Source: Bacilli bacterium (GTDB lineage Bacteria; Bacillota_I; Bacilli_A; RF39; UBA660). From it: DNA of 58,113 nucleotides. The notes beneath the pieces were generated by a model. That model did no database searches. It worked only from the letters and a program-made list of their open reading frames with translations, and was not told the origin of the DNA. Location of the stretch: the NCBI GenBank assembly GCA_017480975.1, contig JAFURK010000034.1, forward strand, positions 1-58,113, written 5' to 3'. Position numbers and translations under genes: made by a program. Numbering within the stretch: the stretch's first letter is position 1; each line of letters opens with the position of its first letter. Positions 1,759 through 57,160 of this stretch are shown one piece after another.

Positions 1759-1760
1759 AA

Positions 1761-3134: not shown

Positions 3135-3172
3135 GATAACTCCTCCTTTTCATTCTTAATACTAATATATCA

Positions 3173-3190
3173 AAGTAAATTTTAAGTAAA
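3173..3190 (-). promoter_or_regulatory. Direct repeat TTTACTT-N4-TTTACTT (minus strand) abutting a TGATATATT extended -10; putative response-regulator box for the cls operon
   Basis: The plus strand shows aagtaaa at 3173-3179 and 3184-3190, an 11-bp period. The same repeat with the same spacing occurs upstream of the response-regulator gene at 5010-5027. Confidence 0.5.
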
Positions 3191-3265
3191 AATTTAACCT
3201 TTATTAACAAAAAATACTTAAAATTACTTAACTCTAAATATAAAGCTAAAGAAAATATAAGTATT

Positions 3266-4312
3266 TTAACCCCTATAAAGAATAACGGTAAAAGTACTTC
3301 CCTTATTAAGCTCACTCTCAACTTTAATTTTACCTTCAACCAATTGAACAATCCTATTAGCAATCGTAAGACCTAATCCTAACCCCCTAGCAGTCTTACT
3401 CTTATCCACTTGATAAAACTTATTAAAAATTAATTTTAACTCTTCTTCAGTCATACCTATTCCCGAATCAATAACACTAAATATTATAGTCTCTTGATAA
3501 ACCCTTAAATTAACGGAAATATTACCACCATCTGGCGTATACTTAATCGCATTATTAATCAAATTAATCCACAAATGCTCCATTATCTCTTCACTACCAA
3601 AATATTCTACTTCTTCCAAATTACAAGACAAATCAATCTTCTTCTTGCTATATTCTGGCTCCAATACAATAATACATCTTCTAATTTGTTCATCAAGTAA
3701 ATATTTATTCTTATTAGGAATTATCCCTTGCGAATTCAACTTCGTAAGAAGGATTGAACTATTCGCCAAATAAGTAAGCTTCTCAGACTCTTCAACTATT
3801 ATCTTTAAATATTTATCCCTATTCTTCTTATCAACGTCATCTTCTAATAACAATTCAGCAAAGCCCTTAATTGAAGTAATTGGCGTCTTAAACTCATGCG
3901 AATAATTATTAACAAACTCATCCTGTAACGTATTAGCCTTCTTTAACTCTTCTTCTAACTTATTAAAATTATTATACGCTACCGCAAAAATTGATGACTT
4001 ACTCGGATCAAGCTTAGCATGATAATCACCACTAGCTGCTTTCGCAAGCCCATCCGCTAAATCCGTCGCCTGCTTAGCCATCCACCTAGCATTTATTGTA
4101 TTAATAACCGTTATAAAAAGCACCATTGGAATAATTAACGCCAAAGCCCTAAAAATCAAATCCCATGATAGCTTATAATTATTTATCAACCATTCAACAA
4201 GACAAAAAGAAACAATTGAGGAAACTAAAATAAATACCGTCTGAAATCTTAACCAACGTACTATATTTTTATACGTAACTCTATCAATATGAATTCTATT
4301 TCTCATCAGCAA
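3266..4312 (-). CDS. Sensor histidine kinase, intramembrane-sensing type (2 TM with a minimal loop, HAMP, HisKA, HATPase_c)
   Basis: H-box SHEFKTPITSIKG, N-box LINNAIKYT, G-boxes DSGIGM and GLGLGL. The two N-terminal TM helices are separated by only about 8 residues. Confidence 0.9.
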   Translation of the reverse strand: MLMRNRIHIDRVTYKNIVRWLRFQTVFILVSSIVSFCLVEWLINNYKLSWDLIFRALALIIPMVLFITVINTINARWMAKQATDLADGLAKAASGDYHAKLDPSKSSIFAVAYNNFNKLEEELKKANTLQDEFVNNYSHEFKTPITSIKGFAELLLEDDVDKKNRDKYLKIIVEESEKLTYLANSSILLTKLNSQGIIPNKNKYLLDEQIRRCIIVLEPEYSKKKIDLSCNLEEVEYFGSEEIMEHLWINLINNAIKYTPDGGNISVNLRVYQETIIFSVIDSGIGMTEEELKLIFNKFYQVDKSKTARGLGLGLTIANRIVQLVEGKIKVESELNKGSTFTVILYRG

Positions 4313-5124: not shown

Positions 5125-5844
5125 TTAACAAGCTTCATCACAAGTATGTTGCTTTACATACAAATATTCTAAAATACTTTCAAATTTATTATATGTATCT
5201 GCTGTTATTTCATCAGTTAATTCCATATAACCATCAGTTTGTTTATCACTAATTCCAGTTTCTATTTTTTCGGCTTGACCATCTACGACTATAACTACAT
5301 TAGGAGCATATATTCTTTTTTCATCGGCAGAAACTTTATTTCCTTCTGCATCAGTTAATGTATAATCAGCTAAGACATTACCTAATAATTCAATTAATTC
5401 ATAATAACCATCTGTTCCTTCTTTTGTTGTTTCTAATTCTCCATTATCATTTATTTCAATTGTATCACGAATTTCTTTTACATCTACATAATAAATTTCA
5501 TCTATTTCAACATCTTTAGCAACTTCTATTAAAGTAGGAAGTACACTTCGACACCAAGGACAGCTATTAAATCCAAAGTAAACCGCAAAAGTTTCCTTAT
5601 TGTTTATCATTTCAACAATATCATCAGCCCCTTTATAAATAAATGGATTATCTTTAGATATAGAAAGTTCTCGATACTCCTTACCACTTTTTTCATTAAC
5701 CTCCCCATTTAAAGATTCATATTCCTCTTTAAATTTAATCGCATCTTTATTATTTTCTTTTTTAGTATTAAGAATATTAAATACCAATATTCCTCCAATT
5801 ATAATTACTATAGCGATTAACACAAATAATATTTTTTTCTTCAT
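5125..5844 (-). CDS. Membrane-anchored extracytoplasmic thioredoxin-fold protein (CPWC active site) with a C-terminal CDEAC motif
   Basis: 239 aa with an N-terminal TM. FGFNSCPWCRS is a CxxC thioredoxin motif. The extreme C-terminus is HTCDEAC. Its ATG overlaps the stop of the preceding small ORF (ATGA). Confidence 0.7.
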   Translation of the reverse strand: MKKKILFVLIAIVIIIGGILVFNILNTKKENNKDAIKFKEEYESLNGEVNEKSGKEYRELSISKDNPFIYKGADDIVEMINNKETFAVYFGFNSCPWCRSVLPTLIEVAKDVEIDEIYYVDVKEIRDTIEINDNGELETTKEGTDGYYELIELLGNVLADYTLTDAEGNKVSADEKRIYAPNVVIVVDGQAEKIETGISDKQTDGYMELTDEITADTYNKFESILEYLYVKQHTCDEAC

Positions 5845-21405: not shown

Positions 21406-23865
21406 TTACTTATGTATTTTCCTTTTACGAACTTTTTTACTGTCTTCTCCTACTGGTGTTTTAGTTTTTCTTAAATATAAATAACTACCTATTCCTAAAG
21501 CTATAACTAAAACAAATATCCCCCCAACTATATAAGTAGATAATGAACCAGTCGGAATTTCTATAATAGGCATATCATACATAACCAACTTATTATCAGC
21601 TAAAGAATTACCAAATGCATCCACTAATGTACCATCATCTTTTAAAGTAAATAATACTGACTCAGCCGTTGTATAATTTGTAGGAGCAATTTTTTCTACT
21701 AGGTAATAAGTTCCAGCTGGAAGACCAATAATTTTCTTAGGTTCATCAGTTGATACCCAACTAGCAGCAGTTCCACCTTCTAAAACAGCTTCCGCACAAT
21801 CACCTGTATATTGATCAACAACCATTTGTAGTTCATCATTTTCATCGATATACGTTTGACAAATGCTAATAGTAGCACCAGGTAACTCCTTTGCTGTCGT
21901 AATATCCAACTTACTAATGGTAATAAAATTAACATCATTTTCAATAACAATTGCCTTTTCGCCCTTTAAAAATTCTTCATTAGTAATAACTGTATCGCCT
22001 GATTTCACATTCCCTTTTTCATCAATAGAGAAAGATGTAGCAGTAGTAGCTTTAATGTATCCTCTAGGTGGCGTAATTTCAATAATATAATAATCACCTT
22101 TAGGAACTCCCACGAATTCATAAGGCTTATCAATAGAAATCCAACTCATCTCCACTCCATCAATAGTCTTAGCAGGATCACAACTATCTTTTTGGCTTTC
22201 ATAACTAGAAGCTGTACAAATTTTTAAACTAGCACCATTTACTTCCTCATTACCACCAACAGCCTTTTTACTAATTTTAATAGTATTCTTATTATTTACT
22301 TGCGTTACAATTAAATTACCACTAGAAGTAGTGACCTTGGTATAATTACCTTTATTACTACAATACCCATCATCAGCTTTAGTATTTCCAGATATATTAT
22401 AACAAATTTTTTCATAAGTAACTGTTGTACTCGCATCTTCATCCTGATTAGTTGATGAAAACTCACAATTTCCAGAATCATTTAAATCAACAGGATTTCC
22501 CCCCTCTGAACTTTGACATTTATATACATAGTTATCAAAATTACAAAATTCACTATCAACTTTCGTAGGTTCTTCACCATCATTACCAACGTAATAACAA
22601 ACATTACCATTACCATTAGAAATAGAATTCATACGATAAAAGTGATTTACACTCCCACTTAAAACATAACCATCAGGAGCACTTTTTTCAACTAAATAAT
22701 AATCATGTTTAAAGAAATCATCATCATTTTCAGCAACATTAGGACTAGTATAAGTGATACTAGAACTACCACCACTATTATCTGCTAACAACTTTTTGCC
22801 ACTAGCTTCATAATCTTGATATAATTCAAGCGTTGAGCCCTCTAAACTATTACCATATTCATCAACCTTATTAGCAACAATCATATGATTTACAGTATTT
22901 GGTATAAGTAATCTAATAGACTTACCACCAGTACGACTAATAGTTGAAGAATCTACCGTTACTAAATGTTGACTATTAGTACAATCAGTATTATTATATC
23001 TAATAATTGTAGGATATACACTTGTATTTGAAGCGGATACACTAACCGTAACAGTACTACTAGCTTTTAAATCACTACCAGATACCTTTACATAAAAACT
23101 ATACTGTTCACCATCCGTCTTTGGCTCAATCGTAACAGAATCGCTACAATTACTTCCCATTCTAGTACAAATTTGAGCAGTTCCACTTGTCGAAGTAGCT
23201 TTCAAAACATAAGTAACTTGACCATCATACTTAGGTACACCACCATATGTAGCATATAAATTATTCATAACAATCTTATCAGATATATAATAACCATTAG
23301 ATTCATTCAAAGTACCATTTAAAAGACTAAATTGAGGTGCCGGAATACTTGTATTTAATTTTAAATTAGATTCATATTCCACAGCCTGATCATAAACTTG
23401 ACGGACACGATTATTAGTATTATAAAAATTGTATGAAGTACCACCATAAACTCTTTTATTAAAAAATGTATTTAAGACAGCACCAACCTGCTCGTATCTT
23501 TCAGCCCCATCACTTACTAAATCTGACATTTCCTTTGCCATCATTCCAGCCGCAATAGCGCTCTTAGAATCTTTGCTCCAACTACTATCAACCTCATAAT
23601 TTTTAGAACAAATTTCCAATCCCCATTGAACACAATATGCATGCTTATTATTAATTACTTTAACATACTCTATCGCATACCCAGAAGGACAAGTACCTCC
23701 AAATCCAACAAAACCTCCACCATAATTACCATTGGTTAAATTAAAACAAACGTGAGTATCATTTTTATCCCCAGTATAAGTTAATGCTTTAGCCTGCACT
23801 GGGAATAAAAATAATACCAAAACCATTAATAATACCAAACTATATTTCTTAACAAATTGCTTCAT
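21406..23865 (-). CDS. Large cell-surface protein with three SpaA/Cna-B-type (prealbumin-fold) repeats and a C-terminal membrane anchor
   Basis: 819 aa. The signal peptide ends in FPVQAKA. Three repeats carry the signature [12 protein letters not shown] / [12 protein letters not shown] / [12 protein letters not shown]. The C-terminus has IEIPTGS, a hydrophobic helix and a K/R tail. Confidence 0.75.
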
Positions 23866-26718: not shown

Positions 26719-27024
26719 ATGAAAAAATTTAATATGCGAGATGAACAATTTATTTGTGAAAATTGTTATAAAAAAGTTGAAAAATTAAATTATACAGCCC
26801 GTGATCATTGCCCATACTGCCTCTATTCAAAACATGTTGATATTAATCCAGGTGACCGTCAAAATACCTGTCATGGGTTACTAAAACCTATATCTATAGA
26901 AAAATTTAAAAACACTTATAAAATTATTTATAAGTGTGAAAAATGTCATCAACTTCATAAAAATATTATGGCCACTGATGATAATTATGATAAAATAGTA
27001 GAACTATCCACTAGTAATTACTAG
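26719..27024 (+). CDS. RNHCP-domain zinc-ribbon protein
   Basis: 101 aa. CENCYKK ... ARDHCPYCLYSKHVD ... CEKCH matches the RNHCP family pattern. This is the only convincing plus-strand gene in the window. Confidence 0.75.
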   Translation: MKKFNMRDEQFICENCYKKVEKLNYTARDHCPYCLYSKHVDINPGDRQNTCHGLLKPISIEKFKNTYKIIYKCEKCHQLHKNIMATDDNYDKIVELSTSNY

Positions 27025-27585
27025 CTCTAATTCTTTAAAAAAATCATAAACATATGGCATAACCAAAACAAACAAAATTAAAATAAATACAATAACCATC
27101 ATAATTTTAAATTCTTTAGAAAGTTTGAAACCTGAATCAGGTTTCTTTTTTTCTACCATTGTTGGTTCATATTTTACGTTATCTAAATGCTCATTATTTG
27201 AAAAATCTTCATTATTATATAAACTAACATCATTACCAATAGTATCATTAGTATTTGGAATAAACTGTGAATGTGAACCAACATTACCATATTGACTAGT
27301 CCCTACTTCATCATTAACAACATTAAAATTTTGGGAAGTATCATATTGATTAGTATTAAAATTACTACTAAATTGATTTTGATTAATATCATAACCATTA
27401 TTAAAATTAGCAACATTATTAACTAAATCCTGATTAACATTATAATTACTATCTCCATTCTGAAGATTAACTCCCATAGCACTATTAATATTAACTTGTG
27501 GATTCTCAATCGCCGTATTTAAATTACTAGTAGCATGATAAGTATTTTGGGAGTCTGAATTTCTCATTAAATCATTATCATTCAT
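27004..27585 (-). CDS. Tail-anchored, extremely N/Q/S-rich low-complexity protein
   Basis: 193 aa. About 150 aa of N/Q/S/D-rich sequence are followed by one C-terminal TM (FKIMMVIVFILILFVLVMPYV). Confidence 0.55.
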   Translation of the reverse strand: MNDNDLMRNSDSQNTYHATSNLNTAIENPQVNINSAMGVNLQNGDSNYNVNQDLVNNVANFNNGYDINQNQFSSNFNTNQYDTSQNFNVVNDEVGTSQYGNVGSHSQFIPNTNDTIGNDVSLYNNEDFSNNEHLDNVKYEPTMVEKKKPDSGFKLSKEFKIMMVIVFILILFVLVMPYVYDFFKELELVITSG

Positions 27586-27609
27586 AAAAAATCCTTTCTA
27601 CAAATATCT

Positions 27610-28803
27610 TTACTGATTATTAGCAAACATACTAGAAATATCAAATGGTTGCGAACCATCAGAAGTATAAACTCCCATTCCAGTTCCTTGCAAATTACTA
27701 GTATTTTTACTATTTTCAGCTACATTAGTATTTGGTTCAATTCCATTAGATACATTTGATGATTGATTTCCATTTGCCATCCCTACTTGTTGATTGTTAA
27801 TTGCATTTACTCCTTGCTGTTGTACCGCTTGTCCACCAATCATACCATTATCAAGATTAACCCCAACAGAAACACCAGGAGTAACAGACATATTTGAATT
27901 TACAGCCATATTTTGATTAATCATCTGCGAATTTTCCATTCCACTATTAACATTCATATTTGGAACAGGTGCAGAATTCATTGACATATTTGACATTTGT
28001 AATTGTACATTAGGCATTTCCCCTATTCCGTTATTTTCCCCTAAATTATTAGGCATTCCTACGGTAGAACCTACATTTGACATTGAATTTATACTTGACA
28101 TTGGATTTATATTTGGCATAGAATTTGCAGATTGCATAGATACTGAATTTACTTCCGGATTTACAGCAACCATTTGCGGTGTTTCAACCATACCAACCGT
28201 TGCATTTAAATTACTTTGAAAACTTTGATTAACATTCATTTCTGGAATTGGCATCGAATTTACTTCTACATTTGACACTAAAGGTTGTACATTTTGTCCA
28301 TTAGCCATCCCATTTTCTAATCCTAAATTACTTACCATTTCTACATTATTATTTATGTCTTGAACTGGTACAGAAGCAACTTCAATATTTACATTTTGCG
28401 GTTGCATATTAGCCATTTGACTAGTTGAAGTATCAAAAGATGGTGTTACACCTACAACTTCAGAAACTATTTGATTTGCAGCAGCATTAACTACCTGTGG
28501 TTGTTCATTCATAACTTGTGCATTTTGTTCATTAGAAATAGAAACATTATCAACTTGCGGTTGAACAACTTGTTCATTAACAGCAGCAGGACTGGAAATA
28601 GTTTCATTATTTACTTGAGTAACATTAGTACTATCTGGTACTAAATTATCATTATTATTCTCACTAACCTTAGAAGAACTCTTTTTCTTCTTATTATCCT
28701 TATTTTTAGAATCAACTAAAAAACCTATTACACCAATTATTAAAATTATTAACACAACTAAGATATAAACATAATATTCTATCAAAAATTCTACAAAACT
28801 CAT
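27610..28803 (-). CDS. N-terminally anchored, N/Q/M/V/S-rich low-complexity repeat protein
   Basis: 397 aa. It has an N-terminal TM and a basic patch (KKKKSSSK). About 340 aa of degenerate repeats follow, of the type NVxVxSxPVPxMNVN / MSNxGxxxGM. Confidence 0.6.
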   Translation of the reverse strand: MSFVEFLIEYYVYILVVLIILIIGVIGFLVDSKNKDNKKKKSSSKVSENNNDNLVPDSTNVTQVNNETISSPAAVNEQVVQPQVDNVSISNEQNAQVMNEQPQVVNAAANQIVSEVVGVTPSFDTSTSQMANMQPQNVNIEVASVPVQDINNNVEMVSNLGLENGMANGQNVQPLVSNVEVNSMPIPEMNVNQSFQSNLNATVGMVETPQMVAVNPEVNSVSMQSANSMPNINPMSSINSMSNVGSTVGMPNNLGENNGIGEMPNVQLQMSNMSMNSAPVPNMNVNSGMENSQMINQNMAVNSNMSVTPGVSVGVNLDNGMIGGQAVQQQGVNAINNQQVGMANGNQSSNVSNGIEPNTNVAENSKNTSNLQGTGMGVYTSDGSQPFDISSMFANNQ

Positions 28804-36981: not shown

Positions 36982-37449
36982 TTACTCCTTTCCTTTATAA
37001 ATAATAGGCTTTATTATCATACCTTCCATCAACATATTAAGTACTGATATAACAACTGCAATAACAAACGGTATTATAAACCCTTGTATCTGAAAATTAT
37101 CTCCCAATATAAAACTAGTAATATATAATACTAATACATTGATAATAGGATAAAACAATCCCATCGAAAGAGCTGTAATAGGCAACGTTAAATAAAATAA
37201 TACCGGCTTAATAGTTTGATTTAGAATATATATTATAACTGCTGCTAATAAAGCATATAATCCATAATACTGATTATTAATATAAAAAGAATCCTTAAAC
37301 ATACAAGACACTGCTATTAAAACAATTGCATAACCTACCATATATAATAACCATTCAAAAATTTTATTATTTATCAATCTTTTAAAATGATTCTTCTCTT
37401 TGTTATTATCAGATTCATCAATTATAATAAGTTTTTTCAAACAAATCAT
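36982..37449 (-). CDS. Holin family 4 / DUF360 (YvlD-like) membrane protein
   Basis: 155 aa with 4 TM. GLFYPIINVLVLYITSFILGDNFQIQGF fits the DUF360 pattern. Its stop is 2 nt before the lgt start. Confidence 0.6.
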   Translation of the reverse strand: MICLKKLIIIDESDNNKEKNHFKRLINNKIFEWLLYMVGYAIVLIAVSCMFKDSFYINNQYYGLYALLAAVIIYILNQTIKPVLFYLTLPITALSMGLFYPIINVLVLYITSFILGDNFQIQGFIIPFVIAVVISVLNMLMEGMIIKPIIYKGKE

Positions 37450-38599: not shown

Positions 38600-39001
38600 C
38601 TATGCGTTATTTATAATTTTTGTCTCACCACCAATAGGTATCGCAATACCTACATTAAACAAAGGAAAATCCATAACAATATAAGCAAAAACTTTATAAT
38701 AAGAACCACTATTCTTTGAAACTATACAAACACCATGCTCAGTTAAATTACCACCTTGAGAATTGCAATGTTCTAATACTTTAGGATACCTATCCTTCGG
38801 ATAAGAATATGCTACCTCATATAAATAAGCATCAATTTCCTCAACAGTATACCCTTTATTATGCTCTATGTAATTGACAACACCATTCTTCACTCTAAAT
38901 GTTTTTGCAAAACTAATTGAAACAGTCATAAAACAAATAAATATAACAAAAAAAGTCAAAATAATAGTTATAATAAAAGAACCACCAAAAGCATCTTTCA
39001 T
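38600..39001 (-). CDS. TadE-like prepilin / minor pilin candidate (paralog 2)
   Basis: 133 aa. It begins MKDAFG-GSFIITIILTFFVIFICFMTV, a short charged leader ending in Gly followed by a hydrophobic helix. It is a paralog of 39034-39459, with shared blocks FRVKNGV, YYKV..Y.V.DFP.FN and IPI.GET. Confidence 0.55.
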   Translation of the reverse strand: MKDAFGGSFIITIILTFFVIFICFMTVSISFAKTFRVKNGVVNYIEHNKGYTVEEIDAYLYEVAYSYPKDRYPKVLEHCNSQGGNLTEHGVCIVSKNSGSYYKVFAYIVMDFPLFNVGIAIPIGGETKIINNA

Positions 39002-39033
39002 CTTAAATCACCACCAAATAATAATAGAACATG

Positions 39034-39459
39034 TTAATAAGGTAAAACAATAACCTCTGTCTCGCCAGAAATTGGGATAACTGGATTATAATTAAAGAAC
39101 GGAAAATCAATAACTAAATAAAGAATAACTTTATAATATACTTCATTAGAACTAACTTCATTTCTAATAATACAAGCACCATTTTCAGAATAAAATCCAG
39201 ATTTAGAATCGCAATTACTTTTAGCACTAGGATATTGACTAGCCGGATAATTATAAGAAAAATTGCTTAAATAATTGTTAATATCATCCTCACTATCACT
39301 ACTACTATCATACTGCATTTGTTCCAAAATATCAATTACGCCATTCTTTACTCTAAAAACTCTCGCATAACTGGCAGCAATAGTCATGAAAGATACAAAA
39401 GCAACAATAAAAATTATAATAAGTTTAAACATAAAAGTACTTCCAAATGCATCTCTCAT
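39034..39459 (-). CDS. TadE-like prepilin / minor pilin candidate (paralog 1)
   Basis: The start is moved to the ATG at 39459 (GGTGAT SD), giving 141 aa. It begins MRDAFG-STFMFKLIIIFIVAFVSFMTI. Confidence 0.55.
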   Translation of the reverse strand: MRDAFGSTFMFKLIIIFIVAFVSFMTIAASYARVFRVKNGVIDILEQMQYDSSSDSEDDINNYLSNFSYNYPASQYPSAKSNCDSKSGFYSENGACIIRNEVSSNEVYYKVILYLVIDFPFFNYNPVIPISGETEVIVLPY

Positions 39460-39564
39460 CACTATCACCAACCTCAAAAAAAATAATTACAATCCTATTA
39501 ATAGATATTCCTAAATAAGACATACAAAAATAATTCTAACTAACCAATCCTATTATTTGCTTCT

Positions 39565-39741
39565 TTATAAATTTTGATTAGTACCATCAACATATTCAAT
39601 ATTATAACTAGTAAGATTGCTCCATTGATTTTCAACATATTTTTGAGCAAGTGGAACTAAAAATCTTACAACTCCAGCTATCAAAGCAATTGCCAAAATG
39701 GTAACTACTACCATACTTAATTCACCTGTAGATTCTTTCAC
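39565..39741 (-). CDS. Flp-like major pilin candidate (58 aa), not in the ORF track
   Basis: Minus strand reads GGAGG, 8 nt, then a GTG start. It encodes MKESTGELSMVVVTILAIALIAGVVRFLVPLAQKYVENQWSNLTSYNIEYVDGTNQNL, ending in TAA at 39565-39567. The short polar leader ends in Gly and is followed by a hydrophobic helix of about 20 aa. Its position directly after the platform genes is where flp sits in Tad loci. Confidence 0.6.
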   Translation of the reverse strand: MKESTGELSMVVVTILAIALIAGVVRFLVPLAQKYVENQWSNLTSYNIEYVDGTNQNL

Positions 39742-39778: not shown

Positions 39779-40573
39779 TTAAATACTAGAAAAAGACATT
39801 AACATAGAAACTAAAAGTAATATCATACCCCCGCCACCAGTAACAACTAACATTACCATAGTCATACTTTCCATTTTACTTAACCTATTTTTATATTTTT
39901 GTTCCCTAGATTTTTGTTGTAAACTAGAAACACTTTTAGAAAATGATATTAACTGAGTATGTTTTTTTTCTTGCTCCCCTAAACTTAAACGATAAAGTAA
40001 TCTCATCATCCTAACAGAATCTCTAACCGGATACATAGTTGCAAAATCCATATAAGGTTGAACTGAAGAATCACCAGCTTCAATCTTAGCAACCATAGCT
40101 TTCAATCCAGGCTTAAAAACTTCCGGAGCATCTTCAATACTTCTAGCAAGCGCAACTGGAACAGTATAATGTTGAATCAAAACTTCTAACCCTTTTAAAT
40201 AATAAGGAAGCAAAGAATCAACTTCATTCAAATGATTTTTATAATAAGTTTTCAAATTAAAATATTGTAATTTAAAAACTAAAAAACCAATAAGCAAACT
40301 AATTATTATATTTAAAAATGATAAACTAGAAATAAAGAAAAACATACATAAAATACTAACTAAAAAACCATTACGTACTCTTTTCATAAAAACAGCATCA
40401 ACATCATAAACTGCATCACCGTATTTAGATAAAAGTAAAAATTCATAATCACTTTCCTTTAACAAATTAAATAAGTCTTTATTATCTGCAACAAATTTTC
40501 CTGTACTAATTTTACCGCTGTAAAATAGTACTCCAAAAATAATTACACCTACTAATAATATCTCTATATACAT
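39779..40573 (-). CDS. tadC: Tad pilus platform protein, GspF/T2SSF-like (TadC-like)
   Basis: 264 aa. The topology (N-terminal TM, cytoplasmic helical domain, C-terminal TMs) fits T2SSF. Its ATG shares one base with the stop of the preceding paralogous gene. Confidence 0.65.
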   Translation of the reverse strand: MYIEILLVGVIIFGVLFYSGKISTGKFVADNKDLFNLLKESDYEFLLLSKYGDAVYDVDAVFMKRVRNGFLVSILCMFFFISSLSFLNIIISLLIGFLVFKLQYFNLKTYYKNHLNEVDSLLPYYLKGLEVLIQHYTVPVALARSIEDAPEVFKPGLKAMVAKIEAGDSSVQPYMDFATMYPVRDSVRMMRLLYRLSLGEQEKKHTQLISFSKSVSSLQQKSREQKYKNRLSKMESMTMVMLVVTGGGGMILLLVSMLMSFSSI

Positions 40574-41472
40574 TACTCAGCACCTACATTCTCATTATAA
40601 TATTTTTCCCCTTTAAGAAGAAAAAATGTATTTACAAGCACTAAAATATGTAACAAAACAACAATAATCGGATTATCTAACATAGCAATATAGCTATCAA
40701 CTCCTAGCAATAACTGAATAAGCATAACAATTCCATATAATGCAACACCAAATAAAAGAAATTGTTTGTGAAATTCAGCCCTATCCATTCTATCTCGATA
40801 AACTCCTTCTACTAATACGTCAATATCATTTAACATATTATCAAAAGTTTCCTCTGTATCCTTGGCACCTTCTTTGGTAACTTGTAAAAATAATTGATGC
40901 ATATTCTTTACCATAAAGAAAGGATATTTAGTATTCATATAAACTATCGAATCATTAACCTCCCCCTTCTCATATGATAAAGCTATCATAGTTTTAACAT
41001 CAGTTAAAACAGGATCTTCTAAAACACCAGATTCAACTACGCCTTCTAATGATTTTATAAATGCCTGAGTACTAGCAAATTCCATTATCGTATTTGTAAC
41101 ATAAACTTGAATTTGTTCAAAAATATATTCACTATATTGCCTCTTTGAACGCAAATAAGTAATGTATGGAATAAATGATATAGCAATAATTGCATAAACA
41201 ATTGAAACAAGCAAACTATAGAAATACATATAACCAACAACCCCTGCAATGCCAGCAAACAAAACTAACTGCGTAATATATTGTCTTGGAGTATAATCCA
41301 TTCCTAACTCTTTAATTTTCTTTCGCATTTCTTTATAAGAATAAGGTGCATATTTTCCATAAATATTATTAGCTTGTTCAGTAATAAACTTATAAACACC
41401 ATTTCCAGTACTTGAACGATAAGTAACAATAAATATTAATACAACACCAACTAGTAATACTGCTATTAACAC
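40573..41472 (-). CDS. tadB: Tad pilus platform protein, GspF/T2SSF-like (TadB-like)
   Basis: 299 aa with a GTG start (GAGGTGA SD). The topology matches its downstream partner, and it lies immediately after the secretion ATPase. Confidence 0.65.
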   Translation of the reverse strand: MLIAVLLVGVVLIFIVTYRSSTGNGVYKFITEQANNIYGKYAPYSYKEMRKKIKELGMDYTPRQYITQLVLFAGIAGVVGYMYFYSLLVSIVYAIIAISFIPYITYLRSKRQYSEYIFEQIQVYVTNTIMEFASTQAFIKSLEGVVESGVLEDPVLTDVKTMIALSYEKGEVNDSIVYMNTKYPFFMVKNMHQLFLQVTKEGAKDTEETFDNMLNDIDVLVEGVYRDRMDRAEFHKQFLLFGVALYGIVMLIQLLLGVDSYIAMLDNPIIVVLLHILVLVNTFFLLKGEKYYNENVGAE

Positions 41473-41476
41473 ATAA

Positions 41477-42808
41477 TCACCTCATTCCACTCTGACTATC
41501 ATTAAGACCATTATACAACATTTTTTCAGAATTAACAATATTAATATCTGAAAAATTTGAACTTAAATTAGAATTGCTTTGCGGATAAACACTTGAATTT
41601 TGAGAATAAATTTGTGGATTTTGAGAATAAATACCAGTATTTACACCAGCTAACTGTGAATAATTAGTATTAATGTTTTGAGAAGAAACTTGTGGATTCA
41701 CCCCAATATTTACCATATTGTTATTATTCATATTAGGGTTTACCTCTTTAAATTGTTCCTTAACTAATATATCAGCTTGCATAGAAACACCTTGACTTTC
41801 CAAATAACCTAATAAATACTTAGTTGGATTATTTATGGTGACATTTCCATCTGGAGTTTTTTTATACAAAATCTTATAATCTGGTTGATTATGGTCATCA
41901 ACAAAAAATTCAACAACCTCAGCAACTTCTCTTTTAAATCTCTGTAATTCAGGACTATAATATCCTTTTATATGCACACCTAATTGCACATATCTATGAA
42001 TACTTCTTAAAAATTGATCCATATCTATACTTGATTCAAGTAAACTATACAAACGACTAGGAATAGATTCAGCCTTATCAGCATGTATAGTTGAAAGTAT
42101 ATTATGACCAGAAGAAATAGAATCACGAACGGCCATAACTGCTTCAGCACTTCTAACCTCAGATAATAGTATCCACCTAGGATTTTGTCTCATACAAGTA
42201 ACCAAAACATCTGCATAACTTGCAATATTATTAGTTTTCATAGCTACAATATCCCGTTCAGGAAATATCTTATCCAAATGAAGTTCTAAAGTATCCTCAA
42301 TAGTAATAATCTTTTCATTATACTTAGTATGTGCTGCCATATACTTTACAAACTCAGTCTTACCACTACCAGTTTCTCCACTAACTAAAATATTACAATG
42401 GCCTTCTACACATTTTAACAGAAAATCATGAATATCTAACCTAATATAATCTTCTTGAATTATTTTATCTTTCTCTAATCTAATTTTAGCAGGAGTCTTA
42501 CGAATTAAAACTGCAATTCCATTACGAGCAATAGATTCATGAACAAAGTTCATACGCAATTCAGCACTTTCAGCATCCAAAAATGGATTGGCCATATTAA
42601 ATGACTTTCCCATCGAATTAGCACATTGAAAGGCCATTTTTTCCATAAAAGTATTATTTAAAGCAGGATTTTCAACTCTAAAAACTCCTTTAGACAATGT
42701 CTTTAACCAAACTTGTCCTCCATTACTATAGGAAATATCTGTTACATCATCATTATTCAAATATTCTTGAATTGGTCCAAAATCAACTTGTGTAAATTCA
42801 TTTTTCAT
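41477..42808 (-). CDS. tadA: CpaF/TadA-family type II/IV secretion ATPase with a C-terminal N/Q/S-rich extension
   Basis: 443 aa. Motifs: Walker A VSGETGSGKTE, Asp box ITIEDTLEL, Walker B RQNPRWILLSEVR and His box ILSTIHA. The last roughly 87 aa are low complexity (IYSQNPQIYSQNSSVYPQSNSN). Confidence 0.85.
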   Translation of the reverse strand: MKNEFTQVDFGPIQEYLNNDDVTDISYSNGGQVWLKTLSKGVFRVENPALNNTFMEKMAFQCANSMGKSFNMANPFLDAESAELRMNFVHESIARNGIAVLIRKTPAKIRLEKDKIIQEDYIRLDIHDFLLKCVEGHCNILVSGETGSGKTEFVKYMAAHTKYNEKIITIEDTLELHLDKIFPERDIVAMKTNNIASYADVLVTCMRQNPRWILLSEVRSAEAVMAVRDSISSGHNILSTIHADKAESIPSRLYSLLESSIDMDQFLRSIHRYVQLGVHIKGYYSPELQRFKREVAEVVEFFVDDHNQPDYKILYKKTPDGNVTINNPTKYLLGYLESQGVSMQADILVKEQFKEVNPNMNNNNMVNIGVNPQVSSQNINTNYSQLAGVNTGIYSQNPQIYSQNSSVYPQSNSNLSSNFSDINIVNSEKMLYNGLNDSQSGMR

Positions 42809-42817
42809 CTATATCAC

Positions 42818-43651
42818 CTATTGATTATTAGTTTCATTATTACTTACTTCATCAGAAGTACTAGATAAAATTTCATCAACTGATACCATTTCAGTTTTTT
42901 CATTAATAAAATCTTGAATATCCTTACTACTAACAAAAACAGCATCCTCAGCAGTTACTTCTTGAGTATTAGGAACCAAAATTAATTCAACATCATAGCT
43001 ACCAGCTAAATATATAGCTTTTCTAAATAACAAATGCATATCTTCAGGCAAAGCAAATAACATATATGCCGGAGTTCTAGCTTCTTGTGAATTTTCAAAA
43101 ACATGACGTCCAGATGAATCCTTAACATCCAAAATTTTTATATTACTTAAAAATTTACCAAACATAATAGTATTTTCATCACTTCTAGCTTTAAAATAAA
43201 TATTAATATAATCATCTGGCATCATACTGTTAGCATATGTACTATCCATATTAACCTTATAACTAATAACAGTCTCATTCTCAGCTACATCTAGAAAAGA
43301 AGAATTCGGTAATGTTGCAGACTCAACAACTAAATCAGTATAAAATATACTACCTTCAGCTATTACTGTATTGTAATCAGGATATTTCCCAATAATGTCT
43401 TCTCCACTTCTATAATAACTTCCTACCAAAAATGAAGTTGGAACATTCATATAAGAAATCATATCAGAAGTAATCTCAGTTCTAGGTTGAATAGTCTGAT
43501 TAGCATAAGGAACTTTAGTTAAAGCAACTTTTTTATTAATAGTAGAACTATAACCAAAATATAAAATTAAAATACACAAAAGAACCCCTAAGATGGTAAC
43601 AGTATTTTTATTACCAACAAATTTTTTTATAGAACTAGATAAATTACTCAT
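42818..43651 (-). CDS. cpaB: CpaB/RcpC-like pilus assembly protein (N-terminal TM plus SAF domain)
   Basis: 277 aa. It has a TM (VTILGVLLCILILYF). The SAF-like segment is KVPYANQTIQPRTEITSDMISYMNVP ... IIGKYPDYNTVIAEGSIFYTDLV. Confidence 0.6.
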   Translation of the reverse strand: MSNLSSSIKKFVGNKNTVTILGVLLCILILYFGYSSTINKKVALTKVPYANQTIQPRTEITSDMISYMNVPTSFLVGSYYRSGEDIIGKYPDYNTVIAEGSIFYTDLVVESATLPNSSFLDVAENETVISYKVNMDSTYANSMMPDDYINIYFKARSDENTIMFGKFLSNIKILDVKDSSGRHVFENSQEARTPAYMLFALPEDMHLLFRKAIYLAGSYDVELILVPNTQEVTAEDAVFVSSKDIQDFINEKTEMVSVDEILSSTSDEVSNNETNNQ

Positions 43652-43681: not shown

Positions 43682-44164
43682 TTAATTCCTAAGTTCTAAA
43701 ATTCCGCTAAGATTATTAACTAAATTAAACGAAGATTCATCACCACTAGTCGTCAAAACATAATCTTGAGTCTTACCAGTAATGACTACTGTAGCCTTTG
43801 GTGGCATCTCAATGATGTCATAAAATTGAATATTATATTCACTAACATCTCCCATTACACTAGCAGCAAAACGTCTAGTAAAATTTTCAACAAATTTTTG
43901 TTCAATAATTTTTAAATCATCATCGCCACATGCTTCTACAGTCTCAATAGTACCTTCATTGTTGAAAACCTCAGCTTTACCTTCTGAATCTCCAATTCTA
44001 TAACATACTAAATCAACCGACTCTAACATTGCAGCTTCCATTGCCTCTTTCAATACATAGTACTCAGATTCATTGTTAACTGTAATATCCTGAAACATAA
44101 CAATCAATATAAAACCTAACATCCCAAATAATATAAAACCTAAACTTAAATAAGCATATTTCAT
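43682..44164 (-). CDS. N-terminally anchored protein of unknown family (possible pseudopilin or assembly factor)
   Basis: 160 aa. It begins MKYAYLSLG-FILFGMLGFILIVMF and is followed by a soluble domain. I recognise no motif. Confidence 0.45.
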   Translation of the reverse strand: MKYAYLSLGFILFGMLGFILIVMFQDITVNNESEYYVLKEAMEAAMLESVDLVCYRIGDSEGKAEVFNNEGTIETVEACGDDDLKIIEQKFVENFTRRFAASVMGDVSEYNIQFYDIIEMPPKATVVITGKTQDYVLTTSGDESSFNLVNNLSGILELRN

Positions 44165-44182
44165 TTAAAATCACCACCACCA

Positions 44183-46765
44183 TTATTTAGTTGCATCACA
44201 AGCTGTAGAAAAAGTTCCAACTGGACAATAACTATTATCTATCCCTAATTTAGTCTTAAAATATCCAGAGAACTTACTAGTTATAAATTCATTACTACCT
44301 GTTTTAGTAATTGTTTGCATACTAGCATAACTAGAATCATTTGAATAATCATTCAATTCATTTATTCCTAACTTATCTCCAGAACTACCACCTTTGGCAA
44401 TTGTTACTTCATATAAAGGTTGACCACTATAATAAGCATCATAAGTACTCTTTAATCTAGTTTGATTATTTCCATCCGCCCACCATACTTGCCAATTTAC
44501 AGGAATAGAAGATGTATTTTTAAATGGTTTTTCAACATCAATAGAACGATAATTATAAGTTAATGCAATTTTATCTCCATCTCCATCGCCATCTTCATCT
44601 TTATAATAACTGTCATTAACATTAACATCACATGTTCCATTTAATTTCCAATCAAATTCAGAATACTCAACTAACAAACTAGGATTAATATTTTCAGCCA
44701 AATTAAACGGAAAATCTTCATCATAAACCCATTTAAAATCAACATAAAACCTTTGACCAGTCGCAACAGATTTCTCTTTCAAATCCTGTGTTGCATCCTC
44801 AGCCTTTTTTATATATTCAGCTTTACCAGCTTCATTACCTGTGATATAGATATAAGAATCAGCTAAACTATACGAATACTTATTTGTTGTATATTTACCA
44901 ACATTATTTGAACCATCACGAATAATATCCCTCTCTGGCGAAGTTTCATCCTTTTTCCAACTGCCATCAACCTCATAACCAGGATTATTTACATCACAGC
45001 TAGAAATATCATTACCATTGCAAGATTTATATTTTATATTTGAAATTGGATCACCATCTTCGACACCATCTTTAATCTTTTTCTGAACTTCTAAATCAAT
45101 CACCTCAAAAGCTGCTTCAGATATTCCAATAAATCCAGAACTACTTCCATCACTCTTAGTATATTTTGCTTTCGTATTATCATCTAAATAAACCGTTTGA
45201 GTAGAACACGAACCATTAGAATATACAGTTGTTTCATACTTATAATAAGGTATACCACTTTTAGTTTGTAAAGCATTTACCCAAGTAACCGTATTGTTAT
45301 AAAAAGTACCTTCTAACCCAAAACCTTTTCCAGCATAGATACCAGTACTATTATCAAAACCAGTTAACTCACCAAAATTAAATTCTGCCTCTTGTATCAA
45401 TAATACATTAATAGAAACTTTAATAGTATCAGAACCAGCACAAGTATTAAGTCTATTTTGTAATTTTACTTCACCAGATACATCTATTTTATTGTTTTTT
45501 CCTCCTATACATTGAAAATACTTACCATTAACAGGTGAACCACTACCACTTGATCCAGCATTATTTTCACAAACTACACTATTTTCTTTAACAGTACTTT
45601 TTGTTTCTCCACCAGTAAGTTGATCATAATAATCACATTCTCTTTGAACAATATTTTCTTTTAATTCTATTGTTAAACTTCCCGTAACAGATAACCAACT
45701 ACCAAATGCATAAAAAACACTACTACCATATCTATTAGATTTTACAAAACAATCATCAGTTACTTCACTAGCTTTCAAAGCATAGAGTACATCTTTCCAA
45801 CTTCTTCCAGTATCATAACTGTTTTGATAACTTCCAAGACTTCCTCGACTAGAAACTATGTAAGAGCCACTACTATTAAACACTTTATAAGTTCTACTAT
45901 TACCATCTTTACAAGTACCAGCACTAATTTTTTCACGACTAGTATTCCGGTATGCAATAGTTTCAGGAGCAATAGTAACAGAATCACTCATCCCACCAAT
46001 AGTTAACAAGAAATTTCCAACTTCATTTTCAGTGCCACAGCTTTTTTCATTAACCCAACAATTTTTTGTATATACACCTAATTCAGTCGAAAAATATGTA
46101 CCACCATATTCATCACTATGGCGATCAGAATAAAAACCGGCCTTATCATGCAAAACAATTCTAAAATGAATTTCTTCTTCACTTCCTAATTCATTAATTA
46201 ACTCATCTAAAGTAATACTAGCTCTAAACCCAACATTTTTGTAAGTACACCAAGCACCTGAAGCCCCATTAGTACAAGAATTCTTCCACTCGCTTTCTCT
46301 TACACCATCATAAGCTTTTTTACAATTTTCTTGAGCTTCAGTCGTACCATTACCATCGCTATCAGCTCTAGAACCAAAACAACGAGATTCAGACATATTT
46401 CTATCTGATTGTGTAACTCTCAGACGAACACTTTTACCAGTTACCTCATTTTCTTTGTAAGTTTTATCCCACTTTCCTACATAAGCTACCACATAAGTAT
46501 CAAAATTACCTCTTCCTCCATTAATACTACCAATATTATGTTGATGTTCAATAAAAGCATAACCATCAAAACTCAAGTTATTACCACTAATATTAAAACT
46601 TTCAACAGAATAAATAACTTTATGAGAAACATTATTTCCCCCAACAGACTCAATACACTCATCGTATGACGTACCTTCTCTACAATTATCTTGTCCTAAA
46701 ACAACATTAGGAAAAACAAACATAACCATAAACAAAAAACATATAAATTTTATCTTTTTTCTCAT
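44183..46765 (-). CDS. Large secreted Cys-containing protein of unknown family (candidate pilus-associated adhesin or substrate)
   Basis: 860 aa. The signal peptide is MRKKIKFICFLFMVMFVFPNVVLG-QD. Many Cys residues are spread through the sequence, with an acidic DEDGDGDGD patch and no C-terminal anchor. Its ATG overlaps the upstream stop by 4 nt. Confidence 0.6.
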   Translation of the reverse strand: MRKKIKFICFLFMVMFVFPNVVLGQDNCREGTSYDECIESVGGNNVSHKVIYSVESFNISGNNLSFDGYAFIEHQHNIGSINGGRGNFDTYVVAYVGKWDKTYKENEVTGKSVRLRVTQSDRNMSESRCFGSRADSDGNGTTEAQENCKKAYDGVRESEWKNSCTNGASGAWCTYKNVGFRASITLDELINELGSEEEIHFRIVLHDKAGFYSDRHSDEYGGTYFSTELGVYTKNCWVNEKSCGTENEVGNFLLTIGGMSDSVTIAPETIAYRNTSREKISAGTCKDGNSRTYKVFNSSGSYIVSSRGSLGSYQNSYDTGRSWKDVLYALKASEVTDDCFVKSNRYGSSVFYAFGSWLSVTGSLTIELKENIVQRECDYYDQLTGGETKSTVKENSVVCENNAGSSGSGSPVNGKYFQCIGGKNNKIDVSGEVKLQNRLNTCAGSDTIKVSINVLLIQEAEFNFGELTGFDNSTGIYAGKGFGLEGTFYNNTVTWVNALQTKSGIPYYKYETTVYSNGSCSTQTVYLDDNTKAKYTKSDGSSSGFIGISEAAFEVIDLEVQKKIKDGVEDGDPISNIKYKSCNGNDISSCDVNNPGYEVDGSWKKDETSPERDIIRDGSNNVGKYTTNKYSYSLADSYIYITGNEAGKAEYIKKAEDATQDLKEKSVATGQRFYVDFKWVYDEDFPFNLAENINPSLLVEYSEFDWKLNGTCDVNVNDSYYKDEDGDGDGDKIALTYNYRSIDVEKPFKNTSSIPVNWQVWWADGNNQTRLKSTYDAYYSGQPLYEVTIAKGGSSGDKLGINELNDYSNDSSYASMQTITKTGSNEFITSKFSGYFKTKLGIDNSYCPVGTFSTACDATK

Positions 46766-47406
46766 TCTAACACTCTTCTCTTTCTCATTCTAAGAAAAGC
46801 GACTATAATTACAACTAAAAGAACAACTCCTCCAAGAATAAATAAATAATAATTACTTAAAAAATCAACAACTTTATTAATAAAACTTCCATTATCATCA
46901 TTATCATTATCGTCATTTAAATAAGAATTAACTACTTTATAAAAATACTCATCATTAATTTCTGCTTGATAATTAGAATCACATACATCTAAATTATATT
47001 CTTCCAATTCTTTACATTCTTTTCTTAAAGAATATACATTAAATTTAGGAAGATTAAAAGAAAACTTTTTCAATAAAATATCTCGACACCTAGTAGAATA
47101 AACCTTAAGCACATTGTTTCCCGATGAAAGTATCAGCTCTAATACACCATTTTCAATCTGATTATAATAATATTCATTTCCATCACCATCAACTATATAT
47201 AATTGTTCATTTAACCCCCGCACATAAACATAATACAAATTATATATCCCTTCTTCTCCTACAACTACTTCATAATCATATTCAACATAACTAGCTAATT
47301 CCTTTAAATTATCAATTTCTTCTTTATCACACATAAGCGCATCTACACTTAAATTAAATCCAAATAAAGAAAAGCAAAAAACAAACATCAACTTTAATAT
47401 TTTCAT
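46762..47406 (-). CDS. Secreted, C-terminally membrane-anchored protein of unknown family; first gene of the Tad-like operon
   Basis: 214 aa. It has a signal peptide, an ectodomain of about 150 aa with 5 Cys, and a DDNDNDDN linker. A TM (LFILGGVVLLVVIIVAF) and an RMRKRR tail follow. Confidence 0.55.
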   Translation of the reverse strand: MKILKLMFVFCFSLFGFNLSVDALMCDKEEIDNLKELASYVEYDYEVVVGEEGIYNLYYVYVRGLNEQLYIVDGDGNEYYYNQIENGVLELILSSGNNVLKVYSTRCRDILLKKFSFNLPKFNVYSLRKECKELEEYNLDVCDSNYQAEINDEYFYKVVNSYLNDDNDNDDNGSFINKVVDFLSNYYLFILGGVVLLVVIIVAFLRMRKRRVLE

Positions 47407-55742: not shown

Positions 55743-56123
55743 TTAAGATAAATCCTTGATTTTCCTATTAACAACACCTATCTTACTTTCTAAACTTTCT
55801 ATATCCTTTTTTAAGGCATTAACCTTATCTTCTAACACTTTCTTATTACTTTCCAAATCAGTACCTTCCTTTAAGATAATCTCATATTGACTTATCAACT
55901 GCTTATATACTTCAATATCTTCCATTAAATCTTCATATTCATCCCTTAAAGAATTTAATCTATTACTTTCATTTTGGCACTGATAATACCCCCAAATTTG
56001 ATAACTAAAAAATCCAATTATTCCAAAAAGAACACCCCCCAATATTAATTGTAAATTTTTATACTTATTCCTATCACTTAACTTATATCTTGATTTCTTT
56101 TTATTCCTTTTTATCCTCTTCAT
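55743..56123 (-). CDS. Small bitopic coiled-coil protein
   Basis: 126 aa with a basic N-terminus, one TM and a heptad-rich ectodomain. Its ATG shares one base with the upstream stop. Confidence 0.5.
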   Translation of the reverse strand: MKRIKRNKKKSRYKLSDRNKYKNLQLILGGVLFGIIGFFSYQIWGYYQCQNESNRLNSLRDEYEDLMEDIEVYKQLISQYEIILKEGTDLESNKKVLEDKVNALKKDIESLESKIGVVNRKIKDLS

Positions 56124-57160
56124 TAGTAATACAAAGCCTTCTTTCCAAAATAATTGTACCTTTCCTCAAATAAAGAACGAGAATACGTTTTTAACGTACC
56201 ACCAATAGGATCAGCTACAACCACACTACTATTATCAGCACCAACCATAACAACCGCATGCTCCCCCGCTTTCCAATAAATAGTCTCCATTGTCGGTTTA
56301 TAAATCCAACTTTGAGAAATATATGGTAAACTAAGTCCCATCGAAGTCCAAACCATAACTGGCTTACCACTTTGAACCAAACTAATTACCTCATTAAAAG
56401 AAAAATTATTTCTAATCTGTATACCACTCTTATATACATTTGCTACTTCAGCTATCGGCTTTTCATAAACTCCATAACTGGCACTAGAGTAAGGATTCCC
56501 TACAAATTCAACTTCTGGATTTCCCCCATAAGTAACTCCATTCTCCAAATATGGTAAATTACCCTTTTTTAACTTAGAAATAACATTATCTGGAGTAACA
56601 GCAACCCCATAATACTGAAGTAACATCGTTAAAGCAACACTTTCACAACCAGTCTGATATTTAGGGTACTGATTAATTAAAGGAAAATTATAACTATTTT
56701 TTTTACTTATACTGCTGCTAGTACTATTATTACTATTACTACTACTATTAATGATAGCTTGTTTCTTTTTTTCATATTTTTTTACTAAAACATCATATTC
56801 AGAATTTAAACTATCTTTTTTCTTCTCCAAATCACTAACTTCATTCGATAAAGTATCAATTTCCTTTTGTAAACTTGCATTTGAATTTTCCTTGTTTTCA
56901 ATCTCTTTTAAATACAAATCATAATCAAAATTATCCTTCTGAAATAAAACCAATAACTCATCATACAACTCCATTTTTTCAGATATAACCCCATTTAAGT
57001 TAACTTCACCATCAACTCCAACTAACTTTTCTTCTTTAAAATATTCATATTGTTTTTTATTACTATCGATAATTTCTAAATTTTTTAAATATAGAAAAAA
57101 TGAACCACCAACACTAAAAATAATCAAACAACAAAATAAAATAACTCTTCTCATAACCAA
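56123..57160 (-). CDS. Membrane-anchored coiled-coil protein with a C-terminal C39-like (Peptidase_C39_2) cysteine peptidase domain
   Basis: 345 aa. An N-terminal TM and a coiled coil (EIDTLSNEVSDLEKKKDSLNSEYDVLVKKYEKKK) are followed by a Ser/Asn linker. The peptidase domain starts QYPKYQTGCESVALTMLLQYYG, with a downstream GEHAVVMVG His. Confidence 0.6.
   Translation of the reverse strand: MVMRRVILFCCLIIFSVGGSFFLYLKNLEIIDSNKKQYEYFKEEKLVGVDGEVNLNGVISEKMELYDELLVLFQKDNFDYDLYLKEIENKENSNASLQKEIDTLSNEVSDLEKKKDSLNSEYDVLVKKYEKKKQAIINSSSNSNNSTSSSISKKNSYNFPLINQYPKYQTGCESVALTMLLQYYGVAVTPDNVISKLKKGNLPYLENGVTYGGNPEVEFVGNPYSSASYGVYEKPIAEVANVYKSGIQIRNNFSFNEVISLVQSGKPVMVWTSMGLSLPYISQSWIYKPTMETIYWKAGEHAVVMVGADNSSVVVADPIGGTLKTYSRSLFEERYNYFGKKALYY

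Follow-up and report, generated by a model that had tools for sequence, protein, structure and literature searches.

Type IV filament systems share a core set of an ATPase, a membrane platform, a pilin and a prepilin peptidase, and the Tad lineage among them is thought to derive from archaeal pili (PMC6668835). The class III signal peptide has a hydrophilic leader ending in Gly or Ala and then 20-25 hydrophobic residues, with Glu5 present "often but not always" (PMC10191384). Prepilin peptidases have been modelled as "loner" components that are exchangeable and can serve more than one system, and no MSH locus has one (PMC6668835). The tadV gene of Bifidobacterium is always found outside the tad locus (PMC13091076), while the tad operon of Bulleidia (Erysipelotrichales) starts with tadV (PMC12786226), and therefore the linkage of the peptidase varies. 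The window analysed here is the whole stretch of 58,113 nucleotides of contig JAFURK010000034.1 from a Bacilli bacterium. It carries a Tad-like locus in which three consecutive minus-strand open reading frames (ORFs), spanning 38600-39741, encode small proteins with a common N-terminal leader of six residues. We suggest, with a probability of about 60%, that an unlinked A24 prepilin peptidase cuts the three N-termini past Gly6 as class III signal peptides, and that the proteins serve a divergent Tad-type filament. As a kind of system, a Tad-like type IV filament with an unlinked peptidase is known; the fixed six-residue M-[KR]-[DE]-[AS]-x-G leader, the Glu at +1 of the pilin and the fact that nearly all components lie beyond the current family models are not described.

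The Tad/Flp system of gut hosts resembles the locus of the window in its gene order: the ATPase is followed by two membrane proteins, these by a very small pilin, and the pilin by a pair of pilin-like proteins. A TadZ-like ParA-fold protein is common to both, and in both the peptidase is outside the locus. However, the pilin of the window has neither the G/XXXXEY motif nor the Flp_Fap signature, and carries Glu at +1 where Tad/Flp pilins have it at +5. The Tad/Flp leader is longer and variable, whereas that of the window has six fixed residues. The platform, TadE/F-like and TadZ-like proteins of the window are not recognised by Pfam or NCBIfam, its TadZ-like gene stands at the end of the locus instead of at the start, and Tad/Flp systems do not have its DUF5411 protein or its secreted proteins of 214 and 860 amino acids (aa). 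A second comparison is offered by the DUF5411 "secretion-related" operon of 8-9 genes in Roseburia, Ruminococcus and Eubacterium (Miller et al. 2022, PMC9523054). That operon is abundant in the human gut and, like the window, has a CpaF-type ATPase, a membrane platform, DUF5411 and a large surface protein, most of its other products being unannotated. It differs in belonging to Clostridia and in having a platform recognisable as PilC/GspF, and the likeness is one of description. The paper describes no leader motif, pilin or peptidase (PMC9523054).

Type IVa and ComGC prepilins (M-K-x-x-K-G/F-T-L-I-E, the slash marking the cleavage site here and below) also have a leader of about six residues that ends in Gly and is followed by a hydrophobic helix, and they share the lollipop architecture predicted for the accessory subunits of the window. 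In contrast, the window's proteins lack Phe +1, Glu +5 and the N_methyl signature, and their leader contains an acidic residue; the ATPase is one of the CpaF/VirB11/FlaI group and not of the PilB/ComGA group. Archaeal pilins (Pilin_N, PF07790; substrates of PibD, FlaK and EppA) similarly have a short leader, Gly at -1 and no Glu5. They differ in that the window's leader has no basic residue at -2 or -3, its host is bacterial and all matches were below threshold: the pilin candidate scored 15.8 bits with Pilin_N against a cut-off of 25.2, and weak sub-threshold matches were found in 6 of 23 pilins (best E 0.018). The original prediction, made from the DNA alone, had likened the leader to type IVa or archaeal class III signals. 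Its length is indeed type IVa-like and it fits the class III definition, while the archaeal matches stayed below threshold.

The genes at issue and the proposed leader of the pilin are the following.

39565-39741, minus strand: candidate major pilin, 58 aa, Flp-sized, GTG start, MKESTG followed by ELSMVVVTILAIALIAGVV
39724-39741, minus strand: the six codons of the pilin leader MKESTG, with proposed cleavage after Gly6
39034-39459, minus strand: pilin-shaped protein 1 in the TadE position, 141 aa from an ATG, MRDAFG/STFMFKLIIIF
38600-39001, minus strand: pilin-shaped protein 2 in the TadF position, 133 aa, MKDAFG/GSFIITIIL, a paralog of protein 1

The ORFs begin with MKESTGELSMVVVTILAIALIAGVV (58 aa), MRDAFGSTFMFKLIIIFIVAFV (141 aa) and MKDAFGGSFIITIILTFFVIFI (133 aa), and the coordinates, N-termini and hydrophobic helices named in the original prediction were all borne out. 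Each protein has a hydrophilic N-terminus of six residues with Gly as the last, and then a hydrophobic helix of about 20-25 residues; the class III pattern of PMC10191384 is found in all three, with Gly6 conserved across both of the families that they form. The 141-aa and 133-aa proteins are paralogous (42% identity, E 5e-41), and therefore the leader common to these two is inherited and counts once. The idea of three prepilin-like proteins with a shared leader stands in that all three have the leader, but they make up only two independent families. The 105-nt gap between the pilin gene and the next (39460-39564, minus strand) has AATAGGATTG as a direct repeat; no terminator-like hairpin was found there, and shuffled sequences fold as well as its RNA does.

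The GTG of the pilin gene at 39741 is 6 nt downstream of the ribosome-binding site GGAGGTGA, and in 20 of 22 loci the homologs have an ATG at this position with an equally strong ribosome-binding site in front. The 133-aa gene starts with an ATG at 39001 that is preceded by GGTGGTGA. For the 141-aa gene, it had been considered that use of the upstream TTG at 39477 would make the shared leader an artefact. The ATG at 39459 holds against this: MRDAFG begins all 33 aligned homologs, and its Met is the first possible start past the upstream stop in most related loci, so that TTG 39477 is not a conserved start.

The shared short leader is real and strongly conserved, far beyond chance. Across both families the motif sharpens to M-[KR]-[DE]-[AS]-x-G. 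Almost all of the best database homologs of the pilin (119 of 120) begin with MKE[AS][TS]GE, and in 23 loci its M1, K2, E3, G6 and E7 never vary, against a conservation of only about 30% in the C-terminal half. In the 141-aa family, M1, D3, A4, F5 and G6 do not vary among the 33 homologs, although their overall identity goes down to 43%. The accessory family, clustered at 50% identity, was sampled with 145 representatives: Gly6 occurs in 138 of them and the full M[KR][DE][AS]xG in 121. By comparison, M[KR][DE]xxG was not seen at the start of any of 433 unrelated ORFs (100 aa or longer) from the related loci, and the leader motif is not found at the start of any further ORF of the window. Synonymous codons alternate at Gly6 (GGT/GGC/GGA), Ser9 (AGT/TCA) and Glu7, and therefore selection acts on the peptide and not on the RNA. 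As had been noted before, none of the three proteins has Glu at +5. What had been missed is the Glu at +1 of the pilin, invariant in the 23 loci and found in 119 of the 120 homologs. Both the invariant leader and the invariant Glu +1 are unusual.

The pilin family consists of proteins of 45-98 aa with one hydrophobic helix and a short variable tail, sometimes Cys-rich, and it comprises 3026 clusters at 90% identity. Cleavage by a type I signal peptidase was considered for the pilin and rejected, as there is no conserved AxA-type site past the helix. The accessory family comprises 1268 clusters at 50% identity, and the second copy of the 133-aa type is present in about half of the related loci. 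An AlphaFold2 model of the 141-aa protein (predicted local distance difference test, pLDDT, 89.7) has a helix at residues 3-47 and a small head in which two short helices accompany three or four strands; the head bears a Cys pair, C83 and C96, that is near-invariant in the 33 homologs. This predicted model has the "lollipop" outline of a pilin. In one relative, the pilin-shaped module, leader motif included, makes up the first ~130 residues of a 1051-aa protein (P0297; L034 187-3342) and is joined there to Listeria-Bacteroides repeat (Flg_new) domains, as in modular pilins. This fusion is a modular adhesin form of the accessory subunit. Kinship of the pilin-shaped family with DUF5411 was also considered, and hhalign found none.

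We infer from these features that these uncultured gut Bacilli with small genomes probably have a Tad-type (type IVc-like) filament system that has diverged strongly, in which the 58-aa protein would be the major pilin and the two paralogs accessory subunits, analogues of TadE and TadF that probably belong to a tip or priming complex. Each subunit would insert in the membrane with its N-terminus inside and its C-terminus outside, and the six-residue leader would be removed on the cytoplasmic face, past the invariant Gly6. The enzyme would be an A24 aspartic prepilin peptidase that is encoded elsewhere and that a Com or type IV pilus system might also use. The CpaF-like ATPase and two platform-like proteins would then polymerise the subunits. 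The mature pilin would start with the invariant Glu, and Glu +1 could take the charge-neutralising role that usually falls to Glu5. The accessory subunits would start with Gly or Ser, with no acidic residue, like the tip subunits of other type IV filaments; a capping subunit that lacks Glu5 is known in other filaments (PMC10191384).

The absence of a TadV/PilD-like peptidase gene from the 58-kb window was confirmed by Pfam scans and by a motif search. PF01478 and PF06750 (A24) had no match in the 50 of the window's 54 gene-like ORFs that were scanned with Pfam, a set that took in every ORF with at least three predicted membrane helices. The GxGD[hydrophobic][KR] motif is absent from the six frames of the window and of the first 32 of the related loci (together 0.58 Mb), and PF01478 does not occur within 10 kb in any of eleven metagenome contexts with precomputed Pfam annotation. 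Because the window, the 32 loci and the eleven contexts are all negative, the missing linked peptidase is real and is a property of the whole family of loci. By itself it is ordinary and is weak evidence, because unlinked or shared prepilin peptidases are normal in comparable systems and because the 58 kb make up a few percent of the genome, which measures 1.3 Mb or more.

Three groups of proteins were considered as peptidases and rejected. The 155-aa protein with four transmembrane (TM) segments at 36982-37449, a candidate for a small TadV-like peptidase, is PF04020 Phage_holin_4_2, and it travels with lgt and not with the pilus genes. ORFs of ~170 aa upstream of the locus in distant relatives encode a thioredoxin/PedC-like membrane-anchored protein and a SpoU-type methyltransferase. 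The membrane-anchored product of the gene at 56123-57160 (minus strand) contains a coiled coil and a Peptidase_C39_2 domain (E 1.7e-27), and it was considered for cutting at the Gly-Gly of MRDAFGG. It is 17 kb away and not syntenic, the leader is much too short to be a double-glycine signal, and its N-terminal TM segment probably places the domain outside the cell, which also counts against such a role.

Canonical G/FTLxE prepilins require an A24 peptidase. Such prepilins occur in two of the related genomes, L031 and L027, which indirectly suggests that A24 enzymes are present in these genomes. In L031 (OZ006981.1) a gene at 1375-4281 (plus strand) encodes a 968-aa protein with the canonical type IV prepilin N-terminus ...KKIARRKKG/FTLIEVISVIIILG, i.e. 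...RRKKG/FTLIEV, and with a long repeat region rich in Cys and Thr. The core locus opens with the CpaB-like gene, and the 968-aa protein is encoded two genes upstream of it and fills the place held in the window by the 860-aa secreted protein. In L027, a gene at 372-746 (plus strand), ~9 kb upstream of the Tad-like locus, encodes a 124-aa ComGC-like prepilin, MKNSG/FTLVELLATIAIISILG (MKNSG/FTLVEL), and is followed by cdsA and rseP. No A24 peptidase was found within 10 kb of either prepilin locus.

It had been argued that processing, if there is any, must depend on an unlinked gene or on an unconventional enzyme. The unlinked gene is plausible and ordinary; the unconventional enzyme is unnecessary, the 325-aa protein of the locus having a predicted ParA/MinD fold. 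Removal of the leader by a non-A24 enzyme, that is, by a protease that has gone unrecognised in the locus or elsewhere in the genome, seems to us highly improbable. It is true that several conserved locus proteins have no recognisable family and that the motif is unlike the substrates of PilD, TadV and FlaK, since -2 and -3 are not basic and -4 is acidic. However, the 325-aa protein is the sole uncharacterised cytoplasmic protein of the locus, and its predicted fold led us to reject it as a protease. The two polytopic proteins match TadB and TadC in size, topology and position, and the other peptidases of the window, with M23 and C39-like domains, are extracytoplasmic, at least 17 kb away and not syntenic. 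We know of no precedent for a non-A24 enzyme that removes such a leader. It is likewise improbable, if a little less so, that a type IV-like filament here works with no A24 peptidase at all, its N-terminus being either retained or removed by a new kind of enzyme.

Several observations weigh against cleavage by an unlinked A24 enzyme in a Tad-type filament. The peptidase is missing from ~40 related loci (~0.7 Mb), and its presence elsewhere in the genomes is assumed. Cleaved leaders usually drift in sequence, but the length of this one is fixed at six and its sequence is near-invariant, with K2 and E3 unchanging in the pilin. Its net charge is about zero, not positive, and it contains an acidic residue. 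Many of the 145 accessory representatives have Lys or Arg at +6. The pilin residues past Gly6 are E-L-S-M-V-V, with no Glu +5, no Tyr +6 and no Flp G/XXXXEY motif, and Flp_Fap (PF04964) and Flp1_like do not match the pilin. TadE/TadF models (PF07811, PF13400) have no match among the window's proteins; sub-threshold matches to PF13400 were found in only 5 of 75 members of the accessory family (best E 0.017). In general, no pilin, TadE or T2SSF family matches the locus proteins at threshold. A Foldseek search with the 141-aa model gave no significant or pilin-fold match in the PDB, the top matches being levivirus coat proteins (E ~0.3), and for this reason the likeness to pilins is one of architecture, with homology not demonstrated. 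The prepilin identity thus rests on architecture and gene context, there being no pilin family at threshold by sequence or by Foldseek.

These same features of the leader, its fixed length, its near-invariance, its neutrality and its acidic residue, keep alive the readings in which the N-terminus is retained or is removed by another enzyme. If uncleaved, the motif would be kept on the mature subunit with no need of a peptidase, and it could be a docking signal for the platform, the ATPase or the TadZ-like protein, or could be part of the filament core, where Lys2, Glu3 and Glu7 would form salt bridges between subunits. A fixed length with near-invariant Lys2 and Glu3 looks more like a functional mature segment, the peptidase is found in none of the ~40 loci, and in a system this divergent the known rules may not hold. 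We nevertheless consider retention unlikely. Leader removal is needed by every characterised type IV filament (PMC10191384; PMC6668835). Gly6, the most conserved residue, directly precedes the hydrophobic helix, which is the place where prepilin peptidases cut, and retained N-terminal charges would sit in the hydrophobic core of the filament. Moreover, two related genomes encode canonical prepilins that need the peptidase, one of them within the same locus.

The remaining genes of the locus are consistent with the reading preferred here, a divergent Tad-type filament. Their order is conserved in 26 species-representative genomes and several metagenome contigs: 214-aa protein, 860-aa protein, DUF5411, CpaB-like protein, ATPase, two polytopic proteins, pilin, one or two pilin-shaped proteins and 325-aa protein. 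The hosts are all uncultured gut "Bacilli", Erysipelotrichaceae or CAG:321-type metagenome-assembled genomes, and the carriers include one complete chromosome, OZ006981.1 (L031), of 1.31 Mb. The window has the following further genes of the locus.

46762-47406, minus strand: first gene of the locus, 214 aa, signal peptide and C-terminal TM anchor
44183-46765, minus strand: secreted Cys-rich protein, 860 aa, candidate adhesin or cargo, signal-peptide-like N-terminus, conserved locus position
43682-44164, minus strand: DUF5411 protein, 160 aa, PF17424 E 6.5e-35, N-terminal TM helix, no leader motif
42818-43651, minus strand: CpaB/RcpC-like bitopic protein, 277 aa, TIGR03177 pilus_cpaB E 4.2e-5 (score below the cut-off of this model), PF16976 RcpC E 0.013
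41477-42808, minus strand: secretion-type ATPase of the CpaF/TadA-VirB11-FlaI group, 443 aa, PF00437 E 7e-26, above cut-off
40573-41472, minus strand: platform-like polytopic protein in the TadB position, 299 aa, five predicted TM segments
39779-40573, minus strand: platform-like polytopic protein in the TadC position, 264 aa, four predicted TM segments and a soluble domain of ~130 aa
37607-38584, minus strand: TadZ/CpaE-like protein, 325 aa, N-terminal alpha/beta domain and ParA/MinD-fold domain with a degenerate P-loop

The locus has a Tad-like order, and most of its parts are invisible to Pfam. The best solved relative of the ATPase is CpaF (E 8.5e-19), then archaeal GspE, VirB11 and FlaI, and its NCBIfam matches to VirB11, TadA, TrbB and FlaI are all far below their cut-offs. 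Its residues ~345-443 form a C-terminal tail of ~100 residues rich in Asn, Gln and Ser; homologs measure 377-537 aa, with most of the difference in this tail or in an equivalent N-terminal extension. The proteins in the TadB and TadC positions are conserved in all related loci, and their topology is compatible with a platform role. They had no sequence match in Pfam, NCBIfam or the PDB (PF00482 T2SSF/GspF included), even with profiles of 13 sequences, and kinship between the two was rejected since hhalign aligned the first TM segment only. The pilin and accessory proteins, too, had no match at threshold in these three databases, profiles included. The same is true of the 325-aa protein at the sequence level. 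Its AlphaFold2 model (pLDDT 80) has two alpha/beta domains, and Foldseek related the C-terminal one to ParA, MinD, HypB, BcsQ, FlhG and FleN (E 2.6e-5 to 1e-3). At the level of fold only, the predicted structure thus has the TadZ/CpaE architecture, in which a receiver-like N-terminal domain goes with a ParA/MinD-type domain whose P-loop is atypical. This family has 4035 homolog clusters at 90% identity. The 214-aa protein has a near-threshold match to a GGIII-like C-terminal anchor domain. The sequence sources gave no name to any locus protein that we examined.

In more distant relatives the locus has a different neighbour. Within a gene or two past the TadZ-like gene, L018, L020, L021, L023, L024, L027, L030 and L031 (~11.4-20 kb) and L036-L039 (~11.7-20 kb) carry a Gram-positive conjugation-type type IV secretion system (T4SS) module. 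Small T4SS_pilin-like proteins form part of it, together with a TrbL/VirB6-like (614-910 aa), a PrgI-like (~108 aa) and a TraC-like protein, a VirB4-like ATPase of 594 aa and an M23/lysozyme hydrolase; L028 encodes a VirD4-like coupling protein in addition. No match to this module was found in the window. The adjoining module bears on the possibility that the three proteins are not filament subunits but bitopic membrane parts of a secretion- or conjugation-associated machine, their N-terminus being a common means of membrane targeting. The lack of a pilin family match at threshold would fit such a machine, as would the label of putative secretion system given by Miller et al. to the DUF5411 operons of Clostridia (PMC9523054). 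We regard this as very unlikely, because the 58-aa protein has the size and shape of an Flp pilin, the set of ATPase, CpaB-like and TadZ-like proteins and the gene order are Tad-like, and no secretion module adjoins the locus in the window or in its closest relatives.

At the other end, where the locus starts, many relatives have flanking genes for two membrane-anchored thioredoxin/PedC-like proteins (CxxC) and a SpoU methyltransferase.

L015, L018, L020, L021, L023 and L025 (~500-2100) and L036-L040: thioredoxin/PedC-like and SpoU flanking genes

The thioredoxin/PedC-like genes are consistent with disulfide bonds being formed in the secreted, Cys-rich components; the window encodes a thioredoxin-like membrane protein far from the locus, at 5125-5844. 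The window also contains other surface proteins. An 819-aa protein at 21406-23865 (minus strand) has a signal peptide, SpaA prealbumin-fold domains (E 8.2e-25) and, at the C-terminus, a TM anchor with a basic tail, and is a candidate for a second adhesin, of sortase-pilus type. At 27004-28803 (minus strand), adjacent proteins of 193 and 397 aa each have a single TM segment and long low-complexity regions rich in Asn, Gln, Val and Ser, and had no Pfam match. The base composition of the window is ~28% G+C. All of its gene-like ORFs are on the minus strand, a bias unusually extreme for 58 kb, and GC skew is strongly negative across 1-58113, at -0.30 to -0.55 per 2 kb.

The locus family is very large in gut and other metagenomes and has been missed by current annotation: no Pfam domain or source name was found among the pilin, TadZ-like and accessory clusters (3026, 4035 and 1268, respectively). 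The signatures MKE[AS][TS]G/E for the pilin and M[RK][DE][AS]xG/[GS] for the accessory proteins provide a simple way to find and annotate these systems, and the leader signature also marks a defined site for mutation. The missing peptidase would be striking only if complete genomes proved to have no A24 enzyme of any kind; a filament that works without one would be the first of the type IV class not to depend on the canonical peptidase. Should the filament exist, it would be a candidate organelle for colonisation or cell contact in abundant, uncultured gut Bacilli with reduced genomes, and in many of their relatives it would be physically coupled to a conjugation-type secretion module.

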